Source of the DNA: Motiliproteus sp.
GTDB taxonomy: Bacteria > Pseudomonadota > Gammaproteobacteria > Pseudomonadales > Balneatricaceae
Length of the DNA stretch: 64,000 bases
Assembly (NCBI GenBank): GCA_048265065.1
Contig: JBLXCH010000004.1
Span: 12,886 to 76,885, forward strand
Reading direction: 5' to 3'
Under the pieces are notes generated by a model. The model worked only from the letters and a program-made list of their open reading frames with translations, did not search any database and was not told the origin of the DNA. The translations under genes were made by a program, and so were the position numbers. Positions 1,065 through 33,887 of this stretch are shown here, in pieces; the stretch's first letter is position 1, and each line of letters starts with the position of its first letter.

Positions 1065-2537
1065 TTAGCTAAGGTGCTTAAGTACGGTATCCATACTTTC
1101 TTTAGCATCACCAAACAACATGCGAGTGTTGTCTTTGTAGAATAGCGGGTTATCAACACCGGCGTAACCTGTGCTCATACCACGCTTAAGAACGACAGTC
1201 GTACCGCCATTCCAAGGTTCAAGAACCGGCATGCCAGCAATTGGGCTGCTTGGGTCTGTTTGAGCTGCTGGGTTAACGATATCGTTAGCACCAATAACAA
1301 CAGAAACGTCTACGTCTGGGAAATCTTCGTTGATTTCGTCCATTTCGAAAACGATGTCGTAAGGTACTTTTGCTTCAGCGAGCAGTACGTTCATGTGGCC
1401 AGGCATACGACCCGCAACAGGGTGGATACCGAAGCGTACATTAACGCCTTTTGCTTTAAGCTTTTTAGTGATTTCAAAAACCGTGTGTTGTGCTTGAGCA
1501 ACAGCCATACCATAACCTGGGATGATCATTACTTCTTTAGCATCAGCTAGCATGCCAGCAACTTCTTCTGCATCGATAGCAACCACTTCACCTTGAGGTT
1601 CTGCGCCGCCACCTGCTGCTGGAGCTGGCGCTGAATCGCCGCCGAAGCCGCCCATGATAACGCTCACGAATGAACGGTTCATTGCTTTACACATGATGTA
1701 AGAAAGGATCGCACCGGAGCTACCTACAAGCGCACCAACAACGATAAGTAGATCGTTGCCTAGCATGAAGCCCATTGCTGCTGCTGCCCAACCAGAGTAT
1801 GAGTTAAGCATTGATACAACAACTGGCATGTCTGCACCACCAATTGCACAAACCATGTGTACACCGAAAGCTAATGCGATCAAGGTCATCATGATAAGTG
1901 GGAACGTTCCGTCACCTGCCGCAGATTGCTCAACGTACATGCCACCGAAGTAGATCGCAGCAATCAACAAGCCAAGGTTTAAGAAGTGACGACCAGGAAG
2001 TTGCATTGGGCTACCGCTGATCTTCGCGCTGAGTTTCAAGTAAGCGCAAACAGAACCAGAGAACGTCATCGCACCGATCAAGATACCAATGTAGGTTTCT
2101 ACATCGTGGATCGTTTTCGCAACACCAACTAGTGGGTGGCTTGTGTCCATAGCGTTAGCATAACCAACGAAGACCGCAGCAGCACCAACTAAGCTGTGAA
2201 GGATGGCAACTAGCTCTGGCATTTCTGTCATCGCTACACGTTTTGCAAGGATCCAGCCGATCACGCCGCCTGCAACAATACCTAAGATCATAATGAACTG
2301 GTTATTGTCGACAAAGCCGATGATGGTGAATACCAACGCGATGCCCATACCGAGCATGCCGTAAAAGTTACCGCGTCGTGCTGTTTCCTGATGACCTAAG
2401 CCCGAAAGCGCTAGGATGAACAGTGCACTGGCTGCGATGTAAGCAACGGTATAAATTGGATCGATACCGTGTGCTCCAGCAGCGTTTGCTACTGCGGCAG
2501 TGGCTTCATTAGCCATAGTAGTAATTTCGTTAGACAT
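1065..2537 (-). CDS. pntB: NAD(P) transhydrogenase subunit beta
   Basis: [56 protein letters not shown]. Confidence 0.98.
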
Positions 2538-23237: not shown

Positions 23238-25418
23238 GTGACTGTACTTACTCAAATTGGTGGAATACGCGTTTCCAGTGAGTTGTATGATTTTATTAAT
23301 GAGGACGTGCTACCAGGAACGGGTATTGATCAATACTCATTTTGGGTGGGCTTTGCCAAAATAATTACCGATTTCACCCCGCGAAATCAGACGCTTTTAG
23401 AGAAACGTCAGCACTTGCAGGAGCAGATTAACCATTGGCATAAGGCTAACGGTGCAGGCGTTTTCAGCGAATACAAAGCATTCTTAAAAGACATCGGCTA
23501 TCTAGTTGAGTCGGGTGATGATTTTCTTGTTGGCACACAACATATTGACCCCGAAGTCGCAATTCAAGCGGGCCCACAGTTGGTGGTTCCCCTGACTAAT
23601 GCACGTTTTGCGTTGAATGCAGCGAATGCCCGCTGGGGAAGCCTATATGATGCACTATACGGCAGTGATGCCATTCCTCTTACCGGTGATTACCAACGAT
23701 CGAAAACCTTTAACCTTGTCCGAGGTGAGCGAGTTGCTGCGCTAGGTCGACAGTTTTTGGATGAACATTTCCCGCTGGCCACTGGTTCTCATGCGGGAAC
23801 TACTGGGTATGTCATTCGTGATGGGGAACTCAGCGCATTATTTAGTGATGATAATGATAGCGGCTTGCAGGATCCTTCCCAGTTGGTCGGTTTTCAAGGT
23901 GAGGCCGAAGCGCCTACAGCAGTATTGCTTAAACACAACCACCTGCATGTTGAAGTTCAGTTTGATAAAACCTGCCAAATGGGCAGTAATGATCGAGCTG
24001 GGATTAACGATATCGTGTTGGAAGCTGCATTAACCACCATCATCGATTTGGAAGACTCAATTGCTGCTGTTGATGCTGCGGATAAAGTTTTTGCGTATCG
24101 AAACTGGCTTGGTTTGATGAAAGGCAATTTAGAAGCGACCTTTACCAAAAATGGTAAGTCGCAATCTCGTTCACTTGCTGCAGACCGTCATTACCTTACT
24201 GGAAATGGCGAGAAAATATCACTTAAAGGACGCTCATTACTATTTATTCGTAATGTCGGATTGCTGATGAAGAACCCTGCGGTTCTGGATGAGGCTGGCG
24301 GTGAAGTCTATGAAGGTATCATGGATGCGGTGATTACCAGTCTGATTGCTATGCATGACCTGAAAGGCCATGGTCGCATTCAAGGGCAGCCTATTCGTAA
24401 CTCGGAAGCAGGCAGTATCTATATTGTTAAGCCAAAGCTGCATGGGCCTGAAGAAACCGCGTTCACTTGTGATCTGTTTACTCGTGTTGAGGGGCTTTTA
24501 GGCTTGCCGGTTAATACACTTAAAATCGGTATTATGGACGAAGAACGCCGTACGTCGGTAAACCTCCAGCCTTGTATTGCCGCTGCAAAAGACAGAGTCG
24601 CCTTTATCAATACCGGGTTTCTAGATCGTACCGGTGATGAAATTCACACCAGTATGTATGCGGGTGCGTTCGCCACTAAAAATCAACTGAAGTTGATGCC
24701 GTGGATCGATGCTTATGAAGATCGAAATGTTGATGTTGGCTTGAAATGTGGTCTCCAAGGGAAAGCGCAAATAGGTAAAGGAATGTGGGCTATGCCGGAC
24801 AACATGGCCGACATGATGGCAGCAAAAATAGCTCACCCTCAAGCAGGAGCCAATACCGCCTGGGTGCCTTCACCCACTGCGGCGACCTTACATGCCATGC
24901 ATTACCACGAGGTTGATGTTATCAGTGTGCAGCAAGGCTTACTTAATCGCCCGCTAGCCAGTGTCGATACTATATTAGAAATACCTTTACTCGGTGAGCA
25001 GCCGCTAACCGATGAAGAAATTCGTCTTGAATTAGATAACAACTGCCAAGGTATTTTGGGCTACGTAGTACGTTGGATCGATCAGGGTGTTGGCTGTTCG
25101 AAAGTGCCGAATATCAACGATGTTGGCTTGATGGAAGACCGCGCTACCTTGCGGATTTCTAACCAGCATATAGCCAACTGGTTACTGCATGGCGTTTGCA
25201 CTGAAGCTCAGGTTGTCGATAGCTTACAACGTATGGCAGCTGTGGTTGACCAACAAAATGCGGAGGACACAGACTACGTTCCAATGGCGCCAAGTTATCA
25301 AGGCCGAGCATTTCAAGCAGCCAGTGATTTGATTTTTAAAGGCGCAGACCAACCCAATGGCTATACCGAACCGTTACTGCATGGGCACCGTCTAGCCGTT
25401 AAAGCAAATAAGTTATAG
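23238..25418 (+). CDS. glcB: Malate synthase G
   Basis: AGPQLVVP, ALNAANARWGSLYDALYG, RSLLFIRNVG, IYIVKPKLHG, FINTGFLDRTGDEIHT, LMEDRATLRIS. Confidence 0.98.
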   Translation: MTVLTQIGGIRVSSELYDFINEDVLPGTGIDQYSFWVGFAKIITDFTPRNQTLLEKRQHLQEQINHWHKANGAGVFSEYKAFLKDIGYLVESGDDFLVGTQHIDPEVAIQAGPQLVVPLTNARFALNAANARWGSLYDALYGSDAIPLTGDYQRSKTFNLVRGERVAALGRQFLDEHFPLATGSHAGTTGYVIRDGELSALFSDDNDSGLQDPSQLVGFQGEAEAPTAVLLKHNHLHVEVQFDKTCQMGSNDRAGINDIVLEAALTTIIDLEDSIAAVDAADKVFAYRNWLGLMKGNLEATFTKNGKSQSRSLAADRHYLTGNGEKISLKGRSLLFIRNVGLLMKNPAVLDEAGGEVYEGIMDAVITSLIAMHDLKGHGRIQGQPIRNSEAGSIYIVKPKLHGPEETAFTCDLFTRVEGLLGLPVNTLKIGIMDEERRTSVNLQPCIAAAKDRVAFINTGFLDRTGDEIHTSMYAGAFATKNQLKLMPWIDAYEDRNVDVGLKCGLQGKAQIGKGMWAMPDNMADMMAAKIAHPQAGANTAWVPSPTAATLHAMHYHEVDVISVQQGLLNRPLASVDTILEIPLLGEQPLTDEEIRLELDNNCQGILGYVVRWIDQGVGCSKVPNINDVGLMEDRATLRISNQHIANWLLHGVCTEAQVVDSLQRMAAVVDQQNAEDTDYVPMAPSYQGRAFQAASDLIFKGADQPNGYTEPLLHGHRLAVKANKL

Positions 25419-25496
25419 CTGGAGCTCAGTTGGGCGATTAGCAATCAAGCGACTAGTCGATAGTCAGACTGAAGTCGTTTGAGTCCAGTTGTTAGC

Positions 25497-25570
25497 AATA
25501 GGTAATAGGTAATAGGTAATAGAAGTAAGAAGTAGCAGTAGAAATAAGTAGCAGTAGAAATAAGCAGTAA
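25497..25570. repeat. Drifting microsatellite: (AATAGGT)x3 then (AGCAGTAGAAATAAG[T/C])x2
   Basis: Direct reading of 25497-25565, with degenerate flanks. Confidence 0.85.
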
Positions 25571-25631
25571 GCGATTAGAAGTTCAGGGCTAGCAGTTGAG
25601 CGCCTGCTAAATAGGCCCGCCTTTTTTACCC

Positions 25632-25669
25632 AAGCCTTTAACCAATATTGGTTAAAGGCTTTTTTTTTT
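25632..25669 (+). terminator. Strong intrinsic terminator of glcB
   Basis: Perfect 30-bp palindrome AAGCCTTTAACCAATATTGGTTAAAGGCTT followed by T-run. Confidence 0.92.
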
Positions 25670-25759
25670 GCTCATTCCTAGTGCGTTAGCATTAGCTGCT
25701 GTTTGGCAATGGTGCGCCTCAAATGGACGTAAGGGGCTTTCTTTAGGATGAATTCTAAC

Positions 25760-25772
25760 CAATCAATTGATT
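25760..25772 (-). promoter_or_regulatory. IHF-binding consensus
   Basis: Minus strand AATCAATTGATTG matches WATCAANNNNTTR, just upstream of the sigma54 site. Confidence 0.6.
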
Positions 25773-25791
25773 TCCATTGTTTTTTTTAACA

Positions 25792-25807
25792 TGGTACTTT
25801 ATTTGCT
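25792..25807 (+). promoter_or_regulatory. Sigma54 (-24/-12) promoter
   Basis: TGGTACTTTATTTGCT: GG and GC at the canonical spacing. Confidence 0.75.
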
Positions 25808-25859
25808 AAATCTTGTTGTCTGTACCCTTGATTGATAGGACAGCAACAATTTGTAAATA

Positions 25860-25982
25860 GAAAGCTAGGGTTCCGGTCAACGAGTGGTTATTTTGACTCG
25901 TTTGATGTCTGGTCCGAGAGCTTTCGACCTACCCCTTTCAGTGAAAGGCATGGGTTACACGGCGGGATAAAAGCCCGGGAGA
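25860..25982 (+). ncRNA. Guanidine-I (ykkC-yxkD) riboswitch
   Basis: GAAAGC-TAGGGTTCCG...CTGGTCCGAGA-GCTTTC P1; CGAC...ACACGGCGGGATAAAAGCCCGGGAG conserved 3' tail. Confidence 0.95.
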
Positions 25983-26042
25983 CTAGCTTGGCCACACAGC
26001 CAAGGGTACTCCGTGTAACTGAATGTAACTGAGAGGTTCCTC

Positions 26043-27083
26043 ATGAAACGCATATTAGCCTTAGCGCTTGCTCTTTCCTTTAGCTCCCTTTCTCATGCTG
26101 GCGACAGTTTTAAAGTTTGTTGGTCTATTTATGTCGGTTGGATGCCGTGGGCCTATGGTGCCGAACAAGGCATCGTTAAGAAATGGGGCGATAAGTACGG
26201 TATCGACATTGAAGTCGTACAAATCAACGATTACATCGAATCGATCAATCAATATTCTGCAGGCGAATTTGCTGCTTGCACGATGACTAATATGGATGCG
26301 TTAACTATTCCTGCGGCTGGGGGTGTAGATAGTACTGCATTGGTCGTTGGTGATTTTTCCAATGGTAACGATGGCGTTGTTCTTAAAGGTAAAAGCTCGT
26401 TGGCAGACATCAAAGGCCAAAACGTTAACTTGGTGGAGTTGAGTGTTTCCCATTATTTGTTAGCTCGCGGTTTAGAAACTGTTGGTCTGTCTGAGAAAGA
26501 TCTAACCGTAGTTAATACATCCGATGCTGACATGGTAGCCGTTTATGGTACGGATGATGTGACGGCGGTTTCAACGTGGAATCCATTGCTTAGCGAAATC
26601 GAGTCAATGCCTAACAGCACTAAGGTGTTTGATTCTTCACAAATTCCCGGTGAGATTATCGACTTACTCGTTATTAACACCAAAACCCTCGAAGAAAACC
26701 CTGATCTTGGTAAAGCTCTTGTCGGCGCATGGTATGAGATTATGGGCTTGATGGGTGGTACGGATGAAGCTGCGACTGCTGCGAAAACCTACATGGCGGA
26801 AGCCTCAGGCACTGATCTTGCTGGTTATGAAGCACAGCTTGCCAGTACAGAAATGTTTTATACCCCAGCAGAAGCATTAGCACTGACTAATAGCAAAGAC
26901 CTGCTAACCACTATGGAAAATGTCGCTAAGTTCTCGTTCAAACATGGTTTGTTAGGTGACGGCGCACCGGATGCAGGTTTCATTGGGATTGAAATGCCAT
27001 CGGGTACTTTCGGTGACGTGAGCAATATCAAACTTCGTTTTGATCCGACTTATATGCAGTTAGCTGAAGACGGCGCGCTCTAA
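26043..27083 (+). CDS. ABC transporter substrate-binding protein, urea carboxylase-associated family (likely guanidine)
   Basis: Signal peptide; WSIYVGWMPW, NDYIESINQY, TMTNMDAL, IPGEIIDL; riboswitch context. Confidence 0.9.
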   Translation: MKRILALALALSFSSLSHAGDSFKVCWSIYVGWMPWAYGAEQGIVKKWGDKYGIDIEVVQINDYIESINQYSAGEFAACTMTNMDALTIPAAGGVDSTALVVGDFSNGNDGVVLKGKSSLADIKGQNVNLVELSVSHYLLARGLETVGLSEKDLTVVNTSDADMVAVYGTDDVTAVSTWNPLLSEIESMPNSTKVFDSSQIPGEIIDLLVINTKTLEENPDLGKALVGAWYEIMGLMGGTDEAATAAKTYMAEASGTDLAGYEAQLASTEMFYTPAEALALTNSKDLLTTMENVAKFSFKHGLLGDGAPDAGFIGIEMPSGTFGDVSNIKLRFDPTYMQLAEDGAL

Positions 27084-27154
27084 GGTTAATTCAATCAGTA
27101 GATTGAGTTGATGCTCTGCGCATCATTTTCAAACAGACTATAGAGAAGGCGCTG

Positions 27155-27976
27155 ATGACAAAGTTGATCAATCGCGTACCGAGCCGGTCCACCGCGTGGT
27201 TTTTAGGATTATTACCTTTTGTGCTACTGATCGTTTTATATATGGTCGGTTCCGATGCTCGCCTTGAGGTAAATCCTAACGACAAACTGTTGCCGAGCTT
27301 TAGCCAAATTGCGGCAGGCTGGGAACGTATGGCGCTTATCCCTAGCAAGCGCACCGGTGATTATCCGTTTTGGCAAGATACTGCCAGCAGCTTGAGCCGG
27401 TTAGGCATGGGGGTGCTGATTGCCGCTGTAGTCGGACTGTTGCTCGGCATGGTTACGGGTGCATTGCCACTTTTCTCAGCGTCACTTTCACCGTTGCTCA
27501 CGGTGGTTTCGTTAATTCCCCCATTGGCTGTATTGCCAGTCTTGTTCATCGTCTTCGGTTTAGGTGAGTTATCAAAAGTGATGTTAATTGCGATTGGTAT
27601 CACGCCTTTTATTGCCCGTGATATTCAGCGACGGACGGCAGAAATTCCTCCTGAACAGCTCGTTAAAGCACAAACTTTAGGGGCAAACACCTCGCAAATA
27701 ATGATCCGCGTGTTATTGCCGCAGGTTATGCCAAAACTGATTGATGCGGTGCGGCTTTCCCTCGGTGCGGGCTGGCTGTTTTTGATTGCTGCCGAAGCGG
27801 TCGCTGCCACGGATGGTCTGGGTTATCGCATCTTTTTAGTCAGACGTTATATGGCCATGGATGTCATTCTGCCTTATGTGTGCTGGATTACATTGCTGGC
27901 TTTTATCATTGATTTTAGTTTGCGGATCACCAGTAAAAAGCTGTTTCCATGGCATGCGCAAGGAGGTAAAGGATGA
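27155..27976 (+). CDS. ABC transporter permease (NitT/TauT type)
   Basis: NPNDKLLPS, IPPLAVLP, EQLVKAQTLGA, GLGYRIFLVRRYMAMD. Confidence 0.92.
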   Translation: MTKLINRVPSRSTAWFLGLLPFVLLIVLYMVGSDARLEVNPNDKLLPSFSQIAAGWERMALIPSKRTGDYPFWQDTASSLSRLGMGVLIAAVVGLLLGMVTGALPLFSASLSPLLTVVSLIPPLAVLPVLFIVFGLGELSKVMLIAIGITPFIARDIQRRTAEIPPEQLVKAQTLGANTSQIMIRVLLPQVMPKLIDAVRLSLGAGWLFLIAAEAVAATDGLGYRIFLVRRYMAMDVILPYVCWITLLAFIIDFSLRITSKKLFPWHAQGGKG

Positions 27977-28797
27977 ACGAGCTATCACCTTTAAACCAAA
28001 ACTGCGATTCACCTGAGCCAATGATTCAAGTGAATAACGTCTGGAAACAATACGGCGATAACGTAATTTTAGAGCGTATGAACCTCACGGTGAATGAGGG
28101 TGAGTTCGTCACCTTAGTGGGTACCTCCGGTTGCGGTAAAAGCACTTTTCTTAACATGCTCTTGGGCACGGTTAACCCGTCCAAAGGCGAGATCCTCTTG
28201 GACGGAAAGCCCATACCGGATGAACCAGGTCCTGACCGTGGCATCGTGTTTCAGCAGTATTCTGTGTTCCCGCACATGACCGTTCTGGAGAATGTCATGG
28301 CAACGCGGGGTTTTGAACGTAAGGGGCTCACTGGGTACCTCTTCGGCAATGCGAAAAAAACCGCACGAGAAGAAGCAACAGCAATGTTGGATCAAGTGGG
28401 GTTAAGTCATGCCTTGGATAAATTTCCTGATGAACTTTCTGGTGGTATGCGCCAACGCTTAGCGATTGCGCAGGCGCTACTGGGTAAACCGAGAATTTTA
28501 TTATTGGATGAACCATTCGGTGCGCTTGATCCGGGTATTCGTGCAGACATGCACGATCTAGTGTTGACGCTTTGGAAGGAGCACAAACTCACCGTTTTTA
28601 TGGTCACCCATGACTTAAAAGAAGGTTTCTATTTGGGCACGCGGCTTTGGGTATTCGACAAGCTACGCCATGACCCACAAGCACCACAACGTTATGGTGC
28701 TGGCATTACTTATGATCTTTCTGTTGGGCAGATGGATCAATCCATTTATCACGATATTGATGACAGGCTCAGACCCGTTCCGGAGCCGTCTGTTTAA
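27973..28797 (+). CDS. ABC transporter ATP-binding protein
   Basis: GTSGCGKST, LSGGMRQR, LLLDEPFGALD, VTHD. Confidence 0.95.
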   Translation: MNELSPLNQNCDSPEPMIQVNNVWKQYGDNVILERMNLTVNEGEFVTLVGTSGCGKSTFLNMLLGTVNPSKGEILLDGKPIPDEPGPDRGIVFQQYSVFPHMTVLENVMATRGFERKGLTGYLFGNAKKTAREEATAMLDQVGLSHALDKFPDELSGGMRQRLAIAQALLGKPRILLLDEPFGALDPGIRADMHDLVLTLWKEHKLTVFMVTHDLKEGFYLGTRLWVFDKLRHDPQAPQRYGAGITYDLSVGQMDQSIYHDIDDRLRPVPEPSV

Positions 28798-28802
28798 TTT
28801 TT

Positions 28803-29543
28803 ATGGAGTCACTTATGAGTGAGTATATCCGTTCAATCGAGTATACGACTGAGATGAAATCAGGGTCTCATTGGTCGTTTATCGCACGTCGTGGCACAGT
28901 TTTACGCCTGACTGATGTTGATGGCGGTGCCAATGTAGGGATGTTGTTTTACAACCCGGAGAATTTGTTAGAGCGCTACAACGCGCCGGATACTTTGAAG
29001 TGCCAACATACCTTCAAGCTTACTAAGGGTAACTGTTTGTATTCTGATATGGGGCGTGTGTTCGCTTCTATTGTTGAAGACAGTTTAGGTTGGCACGAGA
29101 GTGCAGCGGGTAACTCTCATGCTTCTCATGTTGAGGCCAAGTGGGGCAAGCGCGATTATCAAAAAGACAGTAATAACTGGAAGCAAAACGGTCATGATTC
29201 TTTCCTTGTTGAGCTTGCAAAGTACGGCCTTGGTGCGGCGGACTTAGCGGCTAATTTAAACCTTTTCAGTAAAGTCTGTGTCGGCGATGACGGCAGTATG
29301 TCGTTGGATTCAGGCGCTAGCAAAAAGGGTGCTCATGTCGTGCTTAGGTTTGAAATGGATACCTTGGTGTTGATGCATACCTGTCCACATCCCTTGGATC
29401 AGTCTGAGCATTATCCCGAAAAAACAATTCAGCTTGAACTTGGTGTTGCAGAAACCGTGAAAGACGATGATTACTGCAAAAATTATCGTCCAGAAAATGG
29501 CCGTGGCTTTGCCAATAACGCGCTCTACCACATTGGCTTATAG
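28803..29543 (+). CDS. cgdA: DUF1989 protein, carboxyguanidine deiminase subunit A (A/B assignment by gene order)
   Basis: [44 protein letters not shown]. Confidence 0.85.
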
Positions 29544-29551
29544 GAGTTTAC

Positions 29552-30196
29552 GTGATGTTAAAAGAATCTATGTTAGTTCCAGAAAACGCAGTGAGTAGCA
29601 CCGTTGTGGGTGCTGGCGATTATTATATTGGCTTGCTGAAAGCGGGCGAGACATTCCGCATTTTAGACATGGAAGGTAACCAAGCGGCAGACACACTGTT
29701 CTTTAATGCCGCCAACCCTGCTGAGCGCTATAGCGCTTCGGATACCATTCGAGAGCAGGGGAATATCTATCTCACCGCAGGATCTGAACTGCGTTCGAAC
29801 GAGAATAACGTCATGCTAGAGATTGTTGCGGATACTTGCGGCCGTCATGACACCATTGGAGGCGCGTGTGCTACTGAAAGTAATACCGTGCGTTACGATC
29901 TAGAAAAACGCTGTATGCACGCTTGTCGTGATAGTTGGATGCTTGCCATCGAGGAGCACCCAGAGTTTGGCATCAAAAAGCGTGATATTGCTCACAACAT
30001 TAACTTTTTCATGAATGTTCCAGTCACTGAAGTAGGCGGCTTGACCTTCGAGGACGGGATTTCTGCGCCAGGTAAATACGTGGAATTTAAAGCTGTAATG
30101 GGTGTGGTGGTGTTGATTTCTAACTGCCCGCAGCTGAACAATCCTTGTAATGGCTATAATCCTACGCCGATTGAATGCCTGGTGTGGGCCGCGTAA
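29552..30196 (+). CDS. cgdB: DUF1989 protein, carboxyguanidine deiminase subunit B
   Basis: [51 protein letters not shown]. Confidence 0.85.
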
Positions 30197-30284
30197 TAGT
30201 CACGTTTCTATGACCTGCACTTTAAAGCAAAGCAACCTCAGTGGACGACCACTGTTGTATCCATCATTGGGACGGCCCGAATAG

Positions 30285-33200
30285 GTGAGTATGTTCTCCA
30301 AGGTATTAATTGCAAACAGGGGTGCCATAGCCACACGGATTATCCGCACGTTAAAAGCAATGAACATTACCGCGGTAGCGGTTTATGCGCAAAGTGATGC
30401 CGATAGTTTGCATGTCGCTCACGCCGATGAAGCCTTTTTGTTAGGTGAAGGCCCTGCTGCGAGCACGTATCTAAACGTGGATAAAATCATCGCTATCGCT
30501 AAACAATCGGGTGCGGGTGCTATCCATCCGGGCTATGGCTTCCTTAGTGAAAATGCGGATTTTGTTCGACGTTGTGAGGCCGAAGGGATAGCCTTTATTG
30601 GCCCTACGGCCGAGCAAATGGAGCTGTTTGGCTTAAAGCATAAAGCCCGAGAACTCGCAGCATTAGCGAACGTGCCTTTAACGCCGGGTACGGAATTGTT
30701 GTCCAGTTTGGATGAAGCGCTAAAAGAAGCTAATTCTATTGGTTATCCTGTGATGCTTAAAAGCACTGCAGGTGGTGGCGGTATTGGCATGCAATTGTGC
30801 CAAAGCCAAGCTGAATTGGAAGGTGCGTTCGATTCCGTTAAGCGCTTAGGGGCGAATAATTTTGCGGATGATAGCGTTTTTCTCGAAAAGTTCGTGGCTC
30901 GTGCTCGACATATCGAAGTACAAGTTTTTGGTGATGGTAAGGGTACTGCGATTGCCATTGGTGAGCGAGATTGCTCAAGTCAGCGGCGTAATCAAAAAGT
31001 GGTTGAGGAGTGTCCTGCACCGCATTTAACTGCTGCCGTTCGTCAACAGCTCCATCAAACCGCAGAAGCCTTACTGTCTTCGGTTAAGTATCGCAATGCC
31101 GGTACTGTTGAGTTTATCTATGATGCCGATTCAGGCGAGTTTTACTTTTTAGAGGTGAATACGCGCCTGCAAGTTGAGCACGGCGTGACAGAAGCCGTTT
31201 ATGGTGTCGACTTGGTGCAATGGATGGTTGAGCTAGCCGCTGGAAAAACCGTTGATCTTGTTGGCGAACAAAAGCAATTCTCGCCCGTTGGTCATGCGGT
31301 ACAAGTGCGTATTTATGCGGAAGATCCTTATCGTGATTTCCAGCCTAGCGCCGGGTTGCTAACGGAGGTGTTTTTCCCAACGGGTAATGATATTCGGATT
31401 GATCACTGGATTAGTTCGGGCATTGAAATTCCACCATTCTTTGATCCTATGCTTGCCAAGGTGATCGTGAAAGGTAAAGACCGCAGTGAAGCCTTTACCA
31501 AACTGCAATCGACACTTGATGACATTCGACTTTACGGTAGTGAAAGTAATCTGAGTTACCTGCAAGCGCTAACGCGTGATGCTGTGCTCTTAAGTGGGCA
31601 AGTTACCACGCGTTATTTGAATGATTTTAGTTTTACACCTTCACGGATTGATGTGATTCAAGGCGGTACTCAGACGACGATCCAAGATTATCCGGCACGA
31701 ACCGGTTACTGGGATGTGGGTGTCCCTCCATCAGGCCCGTTCGATAATTACTCGTTCCGTTTAGCGAATCGATTATTGAATAACGACGTCCATGCCGCAG
31801 GTCTAGAAATTACCATGCAAGGGCCGACATTGCGGTTCACAACGGCAACGCAAATTGTCCTTGCGGGTGCGGCAATTGAGGCGAAATTAGATGATCAGCC
31901 GGTTGATCACTGGCAGGTAATCAATGTAGCAGCAGGGCAGACATTACGTTTGGGGCGGATAACAGAGTCTGGTGTTCGTTCCTATCTTTGCGTGCTTGGA
32001 GGCATCCAATGTCCTGAGTATTTAGGTTCTCGTTCTACGTTCACCTTGGGTCAGTTTGGTGGTCATAATGGTCGTGCGCTCTGTGCTGGTGATGTACTTA
32101 AAATAAAACCTGAGTTACCAACAGTGACAGCTGCTCGCTTATCTACAGATTTGCTTCCCCGTATAGAAAATACGTGGCAACTCCGAGTGGTTTATGGTCC
32201 TCATGGTGCACCTGACTTTTTCACCGATGATGATGTCACGATGTTCTTCTCCCACGAATGGGAAGTGCATTACAACTCCAGCCGCACGGGTATACGCCTG
32301 ATTGGCCCCAAGCCTGAATGGGCGCGGGAAAACGGCGGTGAAGCGGGACTACATCCTTCTAACATACATGATAATGCCTATGCGTTTGGTACGGTGGATT
32401 TCACCGGCGATATGCCGGTTATTTTGGGGCCAGACGGACCATCGTTAGGTGGATTTGTTTGTCCTGCGACGGTGATCCATGCGGATCTATGGAAGCTTGG
32501 CCAGTTACGTGCCGGTGATAAAATACAGTTTGTTCCCGTGAGCGTTGAAGATGCAGTCTTATTAGAAAGCGCACAGCATCAACGAGTCAGTGCGCTTGAA
32601 TTTGTTACCCATGATTGCAGCCAAGCAGAACTCACCTCGCCGATTATTGAAACCCTTGATGCGGCTGAGTTTGGCGTTGATGTAGTTTATCGTGCCGCCG
32701 GCGACCACTTTCTTTTGGTGGAGTACGGCGAGCAGGTGTTGAATATCGCCTTACGTTTTCGTGCTCATGCGCTCATGCAGTGGTTGCAGCAAAACCCGAT
32801 TGTGGGTTTGCAAGAACTCACGCCAGGTATTCGTTCACTACAAGTTCATTATGATAGTCAAATGATTAGCTGTCGTGCGTTGGTCGACCGTCTGAAAATG
32901 GCCGAGCAAATTTTGTTAAGCCAGCTTCAAGATCTTCAAGTACCTTCGCGAATTGTGCATATTCCGTTGTCGTGGGATGACGAAGCTTGTCAGCTGGCGA
33001 TTGATAAATATGACCAATCCGTACGTAAAAACGCGCCTTGGTGTCCTAGCAACCTGGAATTTATTCGTCGTATTAATGGCTTGGACAGCATCGATGATGT
33101 GAAGGAGATTGTTTTCGGCGCATCATACTTGGTGATGGGGCTAGGTGATGTTTACCTCGGTGCTCCCGTGGCTACACCTGTAGATCCTCGCCACCGCTTA

Positions 33201-33887
33201 GTGACGACGAAATACAATCCTGCGCGCACATGGACGGCGGAAAACTCCGTTGGCATTGGCGGCTCTTACCTTTGTGTCTACGGCATGGAAGGGCCGGGGG
33301 GCTATCAGTTTGTCGGCCGTACATTACAAATGTGGAATCGCTATTCGCAAACGGCTGAATTCGAAAAACCGTGGCTGTTACGTTTCTTTGATCAAATTCG
33401 TTTTTATGAAGTGAGTAACGAAGAATTAACGGAAATTCGTAGCAACTTCCCTCAAGGCCGTTATCCATTAAAAATCGAAGAAAGTCACTTCTCGTTGTCA
33501 GAATACCAAAACTTCATTGAGGAGAATCTTGATGATATTAATGGCTTCCGTACAGCGCGTGAAAATGCCTTCGCTGCTGAATTAGCGGATTGGCATGCTA
33601 CGGGTCAATTTAAGTATGAAGTGGTGGAAGAAGAACAGGAGCAGTCAGAGGTTAGCTGGCCGAAAGAAAGTCAGGTGATCGATAGTCCGGTCTCTGGCAG
33701 TGTCTGGCAAACTGAGGTGACAGTAGGGCAGCAAGTTAAAGCAGGGGAGTGCTTGATGATATTAGAATCCATGAAAATGGAGGTGCCGGTCTTCGCCTTA
33801 GCCGACGGTACGGTTAGTCATGTATTGTTGACTAGTGGGCAGCGAGTCAGCGCCGGTCAAGCTTTAGTGGTGATTGAAGAGATATAG
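30285..33887 (+). CDS. uca: Urea/guanidine carboxylase (biotin carboxylase, carboxyltransferase, BCCP)
   Basis: [52 protein letters not shown] biotinyl-Lys. Confidence 0.97.

Follow-up and report, generated by a model that had tools for sequence, protein, structure and literature searches.

The guanidine operon of this Motiliproteus sp. genome is probably controlled by an AND gate, in which a σ54 promoter with NtrC as its likely activator and IHF as a plausible helper is followed by a guanidine riboswitch, so that the operon would be expressed when nitrogen is low and guanidine is present. This two-input control by nitrogen limitation and guanidine had been proposed in a first-pass annotation of the same DNA, and it is supported here by the conservation of the promoter in orthologous loci. 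The model is built on the sequence elements that were observed, on their conservation and covariation, and on the presence of rpoN, ntrC and ihfA in the genome. All coordinates refer to the window, i.e. the whole stretch of 64,000 nucleotides that was analysed, and features lie on the plus strand unless stated otherwise.

A guanidine-I aptamer precedes an insulated guanidine operon

The operon comprises six genes (26043–33887), identified by NCBIfam matches above cut-off. It starts with the gene for a substrate-binding protein (26043–27083, TIGR03427, above cut-off), followed by genes for a permease (27155–27976) and an ATPase (27973–28797), both with NCBIfam matches, for the two "urea amidolyase-associated" proteins UAAP1 and UAAP2, which correspond to the carboxyguanidine deiminase CgdAB (28803–29543 and 29552–30196), and for a "urea" carboxylase of 1200 amino acids (30285–33887, NCBIfam match), which corresponds to guanidine carboxylase. 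The functional names CgdAB and guanidine carboxylase were taken from a guanidine literature review, and the predicted role of the operon is the import and assimilation of guanidine. Allophanate hydrolase, which is missing from the operon, is encoded outside the window at the end of another contig (G000:C41:24220–25836, 722.7 bits). It was rejected as a gene sharing an operon-type promoter, as the best σ54 site within approximately 1.2 kb upstream scored 7.6 bits, and no RF00442 aptamer was present in the same region of about 1.2 kb.

Upstream of the operon, an intergenic gap (25419–26042) separates it from the gene for malate synthase G (ORF 23238–25418). A terminator scan identified two hairpins 3' of the malate synthase G gene (25602–25616 and 25632–25661, the second followed by T10), and the predicted hairpins of the region 25602–25670 insulate the operon against read-through from malate synthase G. 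With two terminator hairpins upstream, the operon therefore requires a promoter of its own. Tandem short repeats, GGTAATA in three copies and AGTAGCAGTAGAAATAAG in two, lie at 25500–25580, after the stop codon of malate synthase G and ahead of its terminators.

An unmistakable guanidine-I aptamer had been called in the first-pass annotation, and cmscan with Rfam bore this out: the guanidine-I riboswitch model RF00442 scored 79.9 bits at 25854–25983 (gathering score 63, E 1.4e-12) over the full model (positions 1–107 of 107, not truncated). The aptamer is single-copy in the genome and lies 60 nt 5' of the TIGR03427 binding-protein gene, on the same strand as the transport and degradation genes. 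The motif ACAATTTG (25846–25853), which is repeated in many orthologous leaders, immediately precedes the segment matched by the Rfam aptamer model. The guanidine-I aptamer was missing in all 19 of the congeneric genomes inspected, and the nearest homologues of the binding protein (88% identity) were found in Neptuniibacter and Oleiphilus metagenome-assembled genomes. Because this distribution is patchy, the locus may have been acquired recently by horizontal transfer, and its enhancer may be poorly matched to the host.

The operon is preceded by a σ54 promoter element

The canonical -24/-12 element that had been reported at 25792–25807 was confirmed: TGGTACTTTATTTGCT is an exact match to TGGYAY-N5-TTGCW, and its GG (25793–25794) and GC (25805–25806) doublets are exactly 10 nt apart, as in TGGCAC-N5-TTGCW. 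The pattern occurred twice in the 64-kb window compared with 0.48 expected matches; the other match (1497–1512, minus strand) was rejected as a promoter, since it lies inside an ORF (1065–2537) and is most likely due to chance. A scan of the 3.57-Mb assembly with a σ54 position weight matrix, which was our own approximation of the published consensus, returned only 32 intergenic, correctly oriented matches of at least 12 bits. The best sites genome-wide preceded glnA (17.3 bits), rpoN, flgB and flgF. As these are well-known σ54 targets, the matrix behaves sensibly in Motiliproteus. With 16.4 bits, TGGTACTTTATTTGCT ranked joint third among the 32 sites; the glnA and rpoN sites scored higher and the flgB site the same. 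The genome encodes rpoN (516.5 bits), and a strong σ54-like element, TGGCACCTAGTTTGCT (17.2 bits; L002:1428–1443, corresponding to G000:C7:12411–12426), is located 27 nt 5' of the rpoN start codon, which suggests that rpoN is autoregulated.

The C of the -12 element is at 25806, and standard σ54 geometry, with initiation 12 nt past this base, therefore places the predicted transcription start at the G at 25818. A covarying RNA element of the leader (see below) begins at 25822, so that the transcript must start a few nucleotides past the -12 element, and the predicted start fits this independent constraint. Judged from the sequence evidence, the σ54 promoter is very likely real. We consider it highly improbable that the -24/-12 element is unused and that the riboswitch is the sole regulator of transcripts coming from an unrecognised σ70 promoter or from malate synthase G read-through. 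Both of these sources were rejected, given that a consensus scan of 25300–26150 revealed no σ70-like promoter and that two terminators lie upstream; weak σ70 promoters can escape simple consensus scans of this kind, but the position and orientation of the -24/-12 element are conserved across families while its surroundings are not, and the covarying leader element starts just 15 nt past it.

The σ54 promoter is conserved together with the aptamer

A search with the binding protein gave 80 loci. They represent many genera of the gammaproteobacteria, among them Neptuniibacter, Oleiphilus, Haliea, Porticoccus, Zhongshania, Cellvibrio, Alcanivorax, Marinobacter and Marinomonas, and nearly all of them had the aptamer upstream. 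Promoter statistics were obtained from 88 orthologous leaders by scoring -24/-12 elements in the 300 nt preceding the aptamer, with the antisense strand as control. The median best σ54 score over the 88 loci was 14.5 bits on the sense strand and 3.9 bits on the antisense strand; 73 loci (about 80%) reached 10 bits in the sense orientation compared with six (7%) in the antisense orientation, and a score of 14 bits was reached by 47 of 88 and 2 of 88 loci, respectively. The sense-strand sites were mostly located 50–90 nt before the aptamer, with a cluster at 54–90 nt before its CTAGGG core. In the nearest relatives, TGG and TTG of the -24/-12 element were invariant and the flanking DNA was variable. 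By these comparative criteria the -24/-12 element is a phylogenetic footprint and no chance match.

A class-wide sample of 300 genomes yielded 28 aptamer loci (26 new ones and two from the search among relatives), and 24 of them were preceded by a σ54 site scoring 11.8 bits or more. The genes behind these aptamers coded for binding proteins, CgdA-type proteins and, as judged by motif reading, proteins of the arginase-fold ureohydrolase type. Across the class, the predicted σ54 promoter and the guanidine-I aptamer form a conserved pair, and this layout is the rule and not an oddity. COG3665 genes have been computationally predicted to be σ54 regulated (PMC12316311).

Two further arrangements were observed in these collections. 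Four loci of other gammaproteobacteria in the class-wide sample (L101, L108, L113 and L117) carried a σ54 promoter and a guanidine-I leader before a gene coding for a protein of 397–405 amino acids with the arginase-fold motifs GGDHS, HFDRHADI and SFDIDSVD, which is probably a guanidinase-type ureohydrolase and not part of the carboxylase pathway. In L009 / L013 (G037:C21:16743–17508), two guanidine-I aptamers were arranged back to back on opposite strands, each of them with a σ54-like element of its own (13.7 and 17.3 bits).

NtrC is the likely activator

The NtrC consensus TGCACCA-N3-TGGTGCA, with 14 scored positions, is expected about 80–150 bp upstream of the promoter. Two degenerate NtrC-like sites were found in this region: site 1, TGCTCATTCCTAGTGCG (25669–25685), which is the best upstream match and agrees with the consensus at 9 of 14 positions, and site 2, TGTTTGGCAATGGTGCG (25700–25716), the right half of which is the TGGTGCG half-site (25710–25716) that the first-pass annotation had pointed out. 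With mismatches at 5 of 14 positions, the best 17-mer, TGCTCATTCCTAGTGCG, equalled the shuffled and coding controls and was thus no better than chance. The two sites are spaced 31 bp; the organism's own glnA enhancer consists of similarly degenerate sites with a spacing of 29 and 30 bp, and site 1 is similar to TGCTTTATTTTGATGCG of that enhancer. In the closest relatives, TGGTGC half-sites were aligned with site 2. Among the orthologs, for which the 190 nt upstream of the promoter were scanned at 83 loci together with coding controls, the best NtrC site had at most 3 of 14 mismatches at 35 of 83 loci compared with none of 83 controls, and at most 4 mismatches at 66 of 83 loci compared with 4 of 83 controls. 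These NtrC-type sites were of the form GCACC-N5-GGTGC, such as TGCACCAAAATGGTGA and GCACCGTTTTGGTGC.

Ten σ54 activators (PF00158) are encoded in the genome. The PF00158 scan placed all ten of them elsewhere and none on the contig of the operon, and a dedicated activator beside the operon was therefore rejected. A true ntrC gene (761 bits) is present and adjoins glnA. In Burkholderia cenocepacia H111, the "urea carboxylase" cluster I35_7283–7286 showed reduced expression in an ntrC mutant when nitrogen was limiting, and of the 150 genes most strongly regulated by NtrC, 95% were also regulated by σ54 (PMC5491218); ntrC-dependent induction of such an operon has been published only for this B. 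cenocepacia homologue. Taking homology and the resemblance to the organism's own glnA enhancer as a basis, NtrC is the likely activator at the promoter 25792–25807. That the σ54 promoter is real and yet answers to one of the nine other enhancer-binding proteins, perhaps transmitting a signal other than general nitrogen status, appears improbable to us: the chance-level match of the enhancer to the NtrC consensus, the number of activators in the genome and the absence of the locus from congeners, which may make it foreign, would all be compatible with such a protein, but at the equivalent position the orthologs have sites that clearly follow the NtrC consensus, the operon has no linked activator gene, the half-site spacing is like that of the glnA enhancer, and the homologous operon of B. 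cenocepacia is NtrC-dependent.

A candidate IHF site lies between enhancer and promoter

An IHF consensus had also been claimed at 25760–25772 and was found there: the core AATCAATTGATTG fits the IHF pattern WATCAANNNNTTR on the minus strand. An A8 tract (25780–25787) is located 7 nt upstream of the core on this strand, giving a candidate site that spans 25760–25787 (minus strand), and the arrangement of core and A-tract resembles the H' site of phage lambda. The core pattern on its own is weak, with 6 matches in the window compared with 3.8 expected; core plus A-tract was found at about five places in 3.57 Mb, among which this one alone is within 150 bp of a σ54 candidate. The centre of the site is approximately 52 nt before the predicted start, and ihfA is encoded in the genome (160 bits). 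When up to one mismatch was allowed, IHF-like sites were present at 26 of 84 orthologous loci compared with 7.7 expected (approximately 3.4-fold), and exact sites at 4 of 84 loci compared with 0.5 expected; among the closest relatives, the site was not conserved. The conservation of IHF sites in the orthologs is thus modest, which is supportive and not decisive, and the use of IHF at this promoter is plausible. NtrC and σ54 might also work without IHF, the WATCAA-N4-TTR match being fortuitous and the T8 tract a source of intrinsic curvature. This possibility, to which we give some weight although we hold it to be unlikely, would agree with a core pattern that is unenriched in the window, with the small number of orthologs having exact sites and with the lack of the site in the closest relatives; it is opposed by the rarity of core plus A-tract in the genome, by the location of the site exactly between enhancer and promoter, by the enrichment of near-exact sites in the orthologs and by the presence of ihfA.

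The leader RNA may adopt two alternative folds

The predicted leader is 225 nt long, and a terminator scan found no U-tract terminator between the aptamer and the binding-protein gene. The leader begins with a 5'-terminal hairpin (25818–25841), in which GTCT (25818–25821) pairs with GGAC (25838–25841) and which contains element A, GTACCCTTG (25822–25830). Behind the aptamer follow the local hairpin H (25987–26004, CTTGGC paired with GCCAAG); element A', CAAGGGTAC (26001–26009), which can pair with A in a long-range helix bracketing the aptamer; an anti-aptamer, CCGTGTAAC (26011–26019), which is fully complementary to GTTACACGG (25954–25962) of the aptamer; and the ribosome-binding site GAGAGG (26031–26036) in front of the ATG (26043–26045) of the binding-protein gene.

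The unconstrained minimum-energy fold (-76.5 kcal/mol) contained the anti-aptamer helix, the hairpin 25987–26004 and a tail helix formed by GGAG (25978–25981) and CTCC, and the ribosome-binding site was fully paired. When the Rfam aptamer pairs were enforced, which mimics the ligand-bound state, the fold (-62.9 kcal/mol) contained the helix GTACCCTTG:CAAGGGTAC, the anti-aptamer was single-stranded and the ribosome-binding site was largely free. Enforcing the aptamer costs 13.6 kcal/mol relative to the unconstrained fold, and the ON state must therefore rely on ligand and tertiary energy or on co-transcriptional kinetics. The A:A' and aptamer:anti-aptamer helices would cross, with only 1 nt between their 3' strands, from which we infer that they are mutually exclusive. 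The folding of the ribosome-binding site refers to this locus, as automatic start calls in the orthologs were unreliable and picked up in-frame upstream TTG or GTG codons.

Covariation of the A:A' helix was measured on an alignment of 32 sequences. Standard pairs were present in 75% of the cells, compared with 35–46% when the 3' partner was slid by 1–3 columns; compensatory changes were seen at 10 of 11 pairs, and 46 cells were changed on both sides compared with 15.7 ± 4.6 in shuffles. Variants of the helix in orthologs included GTACTCTTGGT:GCCAAGAGTGC, GAGGAATCAAATGGC:GCCATTTGATTCCTC, AGTATTTCTGGTTA:TAGCCAGGAATACT and GCACAAGAG:CTCTTGTGC. A test of cognate against non-cognate helices was diluted by shared helix sequences, and column-wise covariation counts were used instead. 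The competing leader hairpin, in which all four stem pairs covary, and the local hairpin H also showed covariation, and covariation in both folds is as expected if these are two alternative functional folds. Element A starts at a fixed distance of approximately 15 nt past the -12 element in most loci, A:A'-type pairing of the leader with downstream sequence was seen again in the class-wide sample, and GTGTAAC of the anti-aptamer recurs in orthologs. The A:A' helix, with which hairpin H and the tail helix compete, does not belong to the Rfam model, and the searched literature contained no mention of it.

We lean towards the view that the first approximately 25 nt of σ54-driven proteobacterial guanidine-I transcripts belong to the switch: a 5' hairpin would present an element that clamps onto a segment approximately 18 nt past the aptamer, so that the folded aptamer is bracketed, in competition with a fold of local hairpin and anti-aptamer that hides the ribosome-binding site. 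If true, a riboswitch class thought to be without a flanking helix would have a translational expression platform of three parts that has not been described before, and, given the fixed spacing of A and the -12 element, promoter and RNA switch would have evolved jointly as a single unit. Whereas the parts of the system were already known, the covarying leader clamp in the modelled aptamer-folded state is an additional new finding.

A model for two-input control of guanidine assimilation

In the proposed mechanism, the operon 26043–33887 would be transcribed from the σ54 promoter 25792–25807 with a start near 25818. The σ54 holoenzyme cannot open DNA alone and requires an enhancer-binding ATPase, here most likely phosphorylated NtrC, which would bind to the weak sites 25669–25685 and 25700–25716 and would be brought to the promoter through a DNA loop made by IHF at 25760–25787. 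Since σ54 needs activation by NtrC, transcription would start only under nitrogen limitation, and the 225-nt leader would then decide on the translation of the message. Without guanidine, the anti-aptamer (26011–26019) would invade the aptamer, the local hairpin and the tail helix would form, and the ribosome-binding site would be paired; with guanidine, the aptamer (25854–25983) would fold, A would clamp A', and the ribosome-binding site would be free. Four points of this model are predictions, namely where transcription starts, which protein activates it, whether IHF takes part and which of the folds represents the ON state.

Such wiring would put guanidine assimilation of marine gammaproteobacteria in the Ntr nitrogen-scavenging regulon, with a substrate check at the RNA level, and it would fit a role of guanidine as a nitrogen source in these bacteria, beyond mere detoxification. 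The class-wide layout of a σ54 promoter and a riboswitch would explain why "urea carboxylase" genes are listed as NtrC targets in transcriptomes, and it predicts that induction by guanidine fails in ammonium-rich media. Promoter and leader together would represent a compact natural two-input gate, and the conserved helix between leader and platform would offer a concrete mutable handle on terminator-less guanidine-I switches.

Comparison with known systems

Full-text searches of the literature revealed no relevant paper that joins a guanidine riboswitch or ykkC with σ54, NtrC or rpoN. The locus is an instance of a widespread proteobacterial variant, the nitrogen-gated guanidine riboswitch, which as far as we found has not been explicitly published. 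A comparable arrangement that has been demonstrated experimentally is the gdmH operon of Synechocystis sp. PCC 6803, in which an NtcA-activated promoter is followed by a guanidine-I riboswitch; as is proposed for the present locus, a global nitrogen regulator acts on initiation, an RF00442 element in the 5' untranslated region responds to guanidine, and a guanidine ABC importer is involved, which in Synechocystis is also under nitrogen control (PMC12704784). The two systems differ in their parts. Synechocystis uses NtcA at about -42 of a σ70-type promoter, the guanidinase GdmH and a riboswitch acting on transcription, whereas the Motiliproteus locus has a σ54 promoter with a remote enhancer and a predicted IHF site, the carboxylase/CgdAB pathway and a terminator-less leader.

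The likeness to the I35_7283–7286 cluster of B. cenocepacia is one of gene set, both consisting of a binding protein, UAAP-type proteins and a carboxylase; that cluster was read by the authors as serving urea utilisation, and a riboswitch was not discussed (PMC5491218). In Vreelandella boliviensis, the proteins of the operon were present at high levels on guanidine and hardly at all on ammonium, a comparison in which the two inputs are not separable.

Classical promoters that combine NtrC, IHF and σ54, such as glnHp2 and glnAp2 of Escherichia coli, have tandem NtrC sites approximately 100–150 bp upstream, an IHF bend between these sites and the promoter, and a GG-N10-GC element. The layout proposed here is the same as in glnHp2 and glnAp2, but its candidate enhancer sites fall far short of the consensus and the promoter is followed by a riboswitch. 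With the guanidine-I riboswitches (ykkC subtype 1) of Firmicutes and Dickeya dadantii, the locus shares the aptamer, the predicted ON-switch behaviour and the context of carboxylase and ABC transporter genes. The expression platform of those riboswitches is usually an intrinsic terminator, whereas here, in the absence of a U-tract, it would combine an anti-aptamer with a ribosome-binding site that can be paired and with a 5' element that pairs past the aptamer. In ykkC subtype 2 riboswitches (PRPP/ppGpp), a helix termed P0 flanks the aptamer as part of the expression platform, and this helix has been stated to be absent from guanidine aptamers (PMC6031431). Like P0, the A:A' helix would join sequences from either side of the aptamer; unlike P0, its strands do not adjoin the aptamer ends but are located approximately 24 nt before and approximately 18 nt after the aptamer, and the hairpin at the predicted transcript start contains the 5' strand of the helix.
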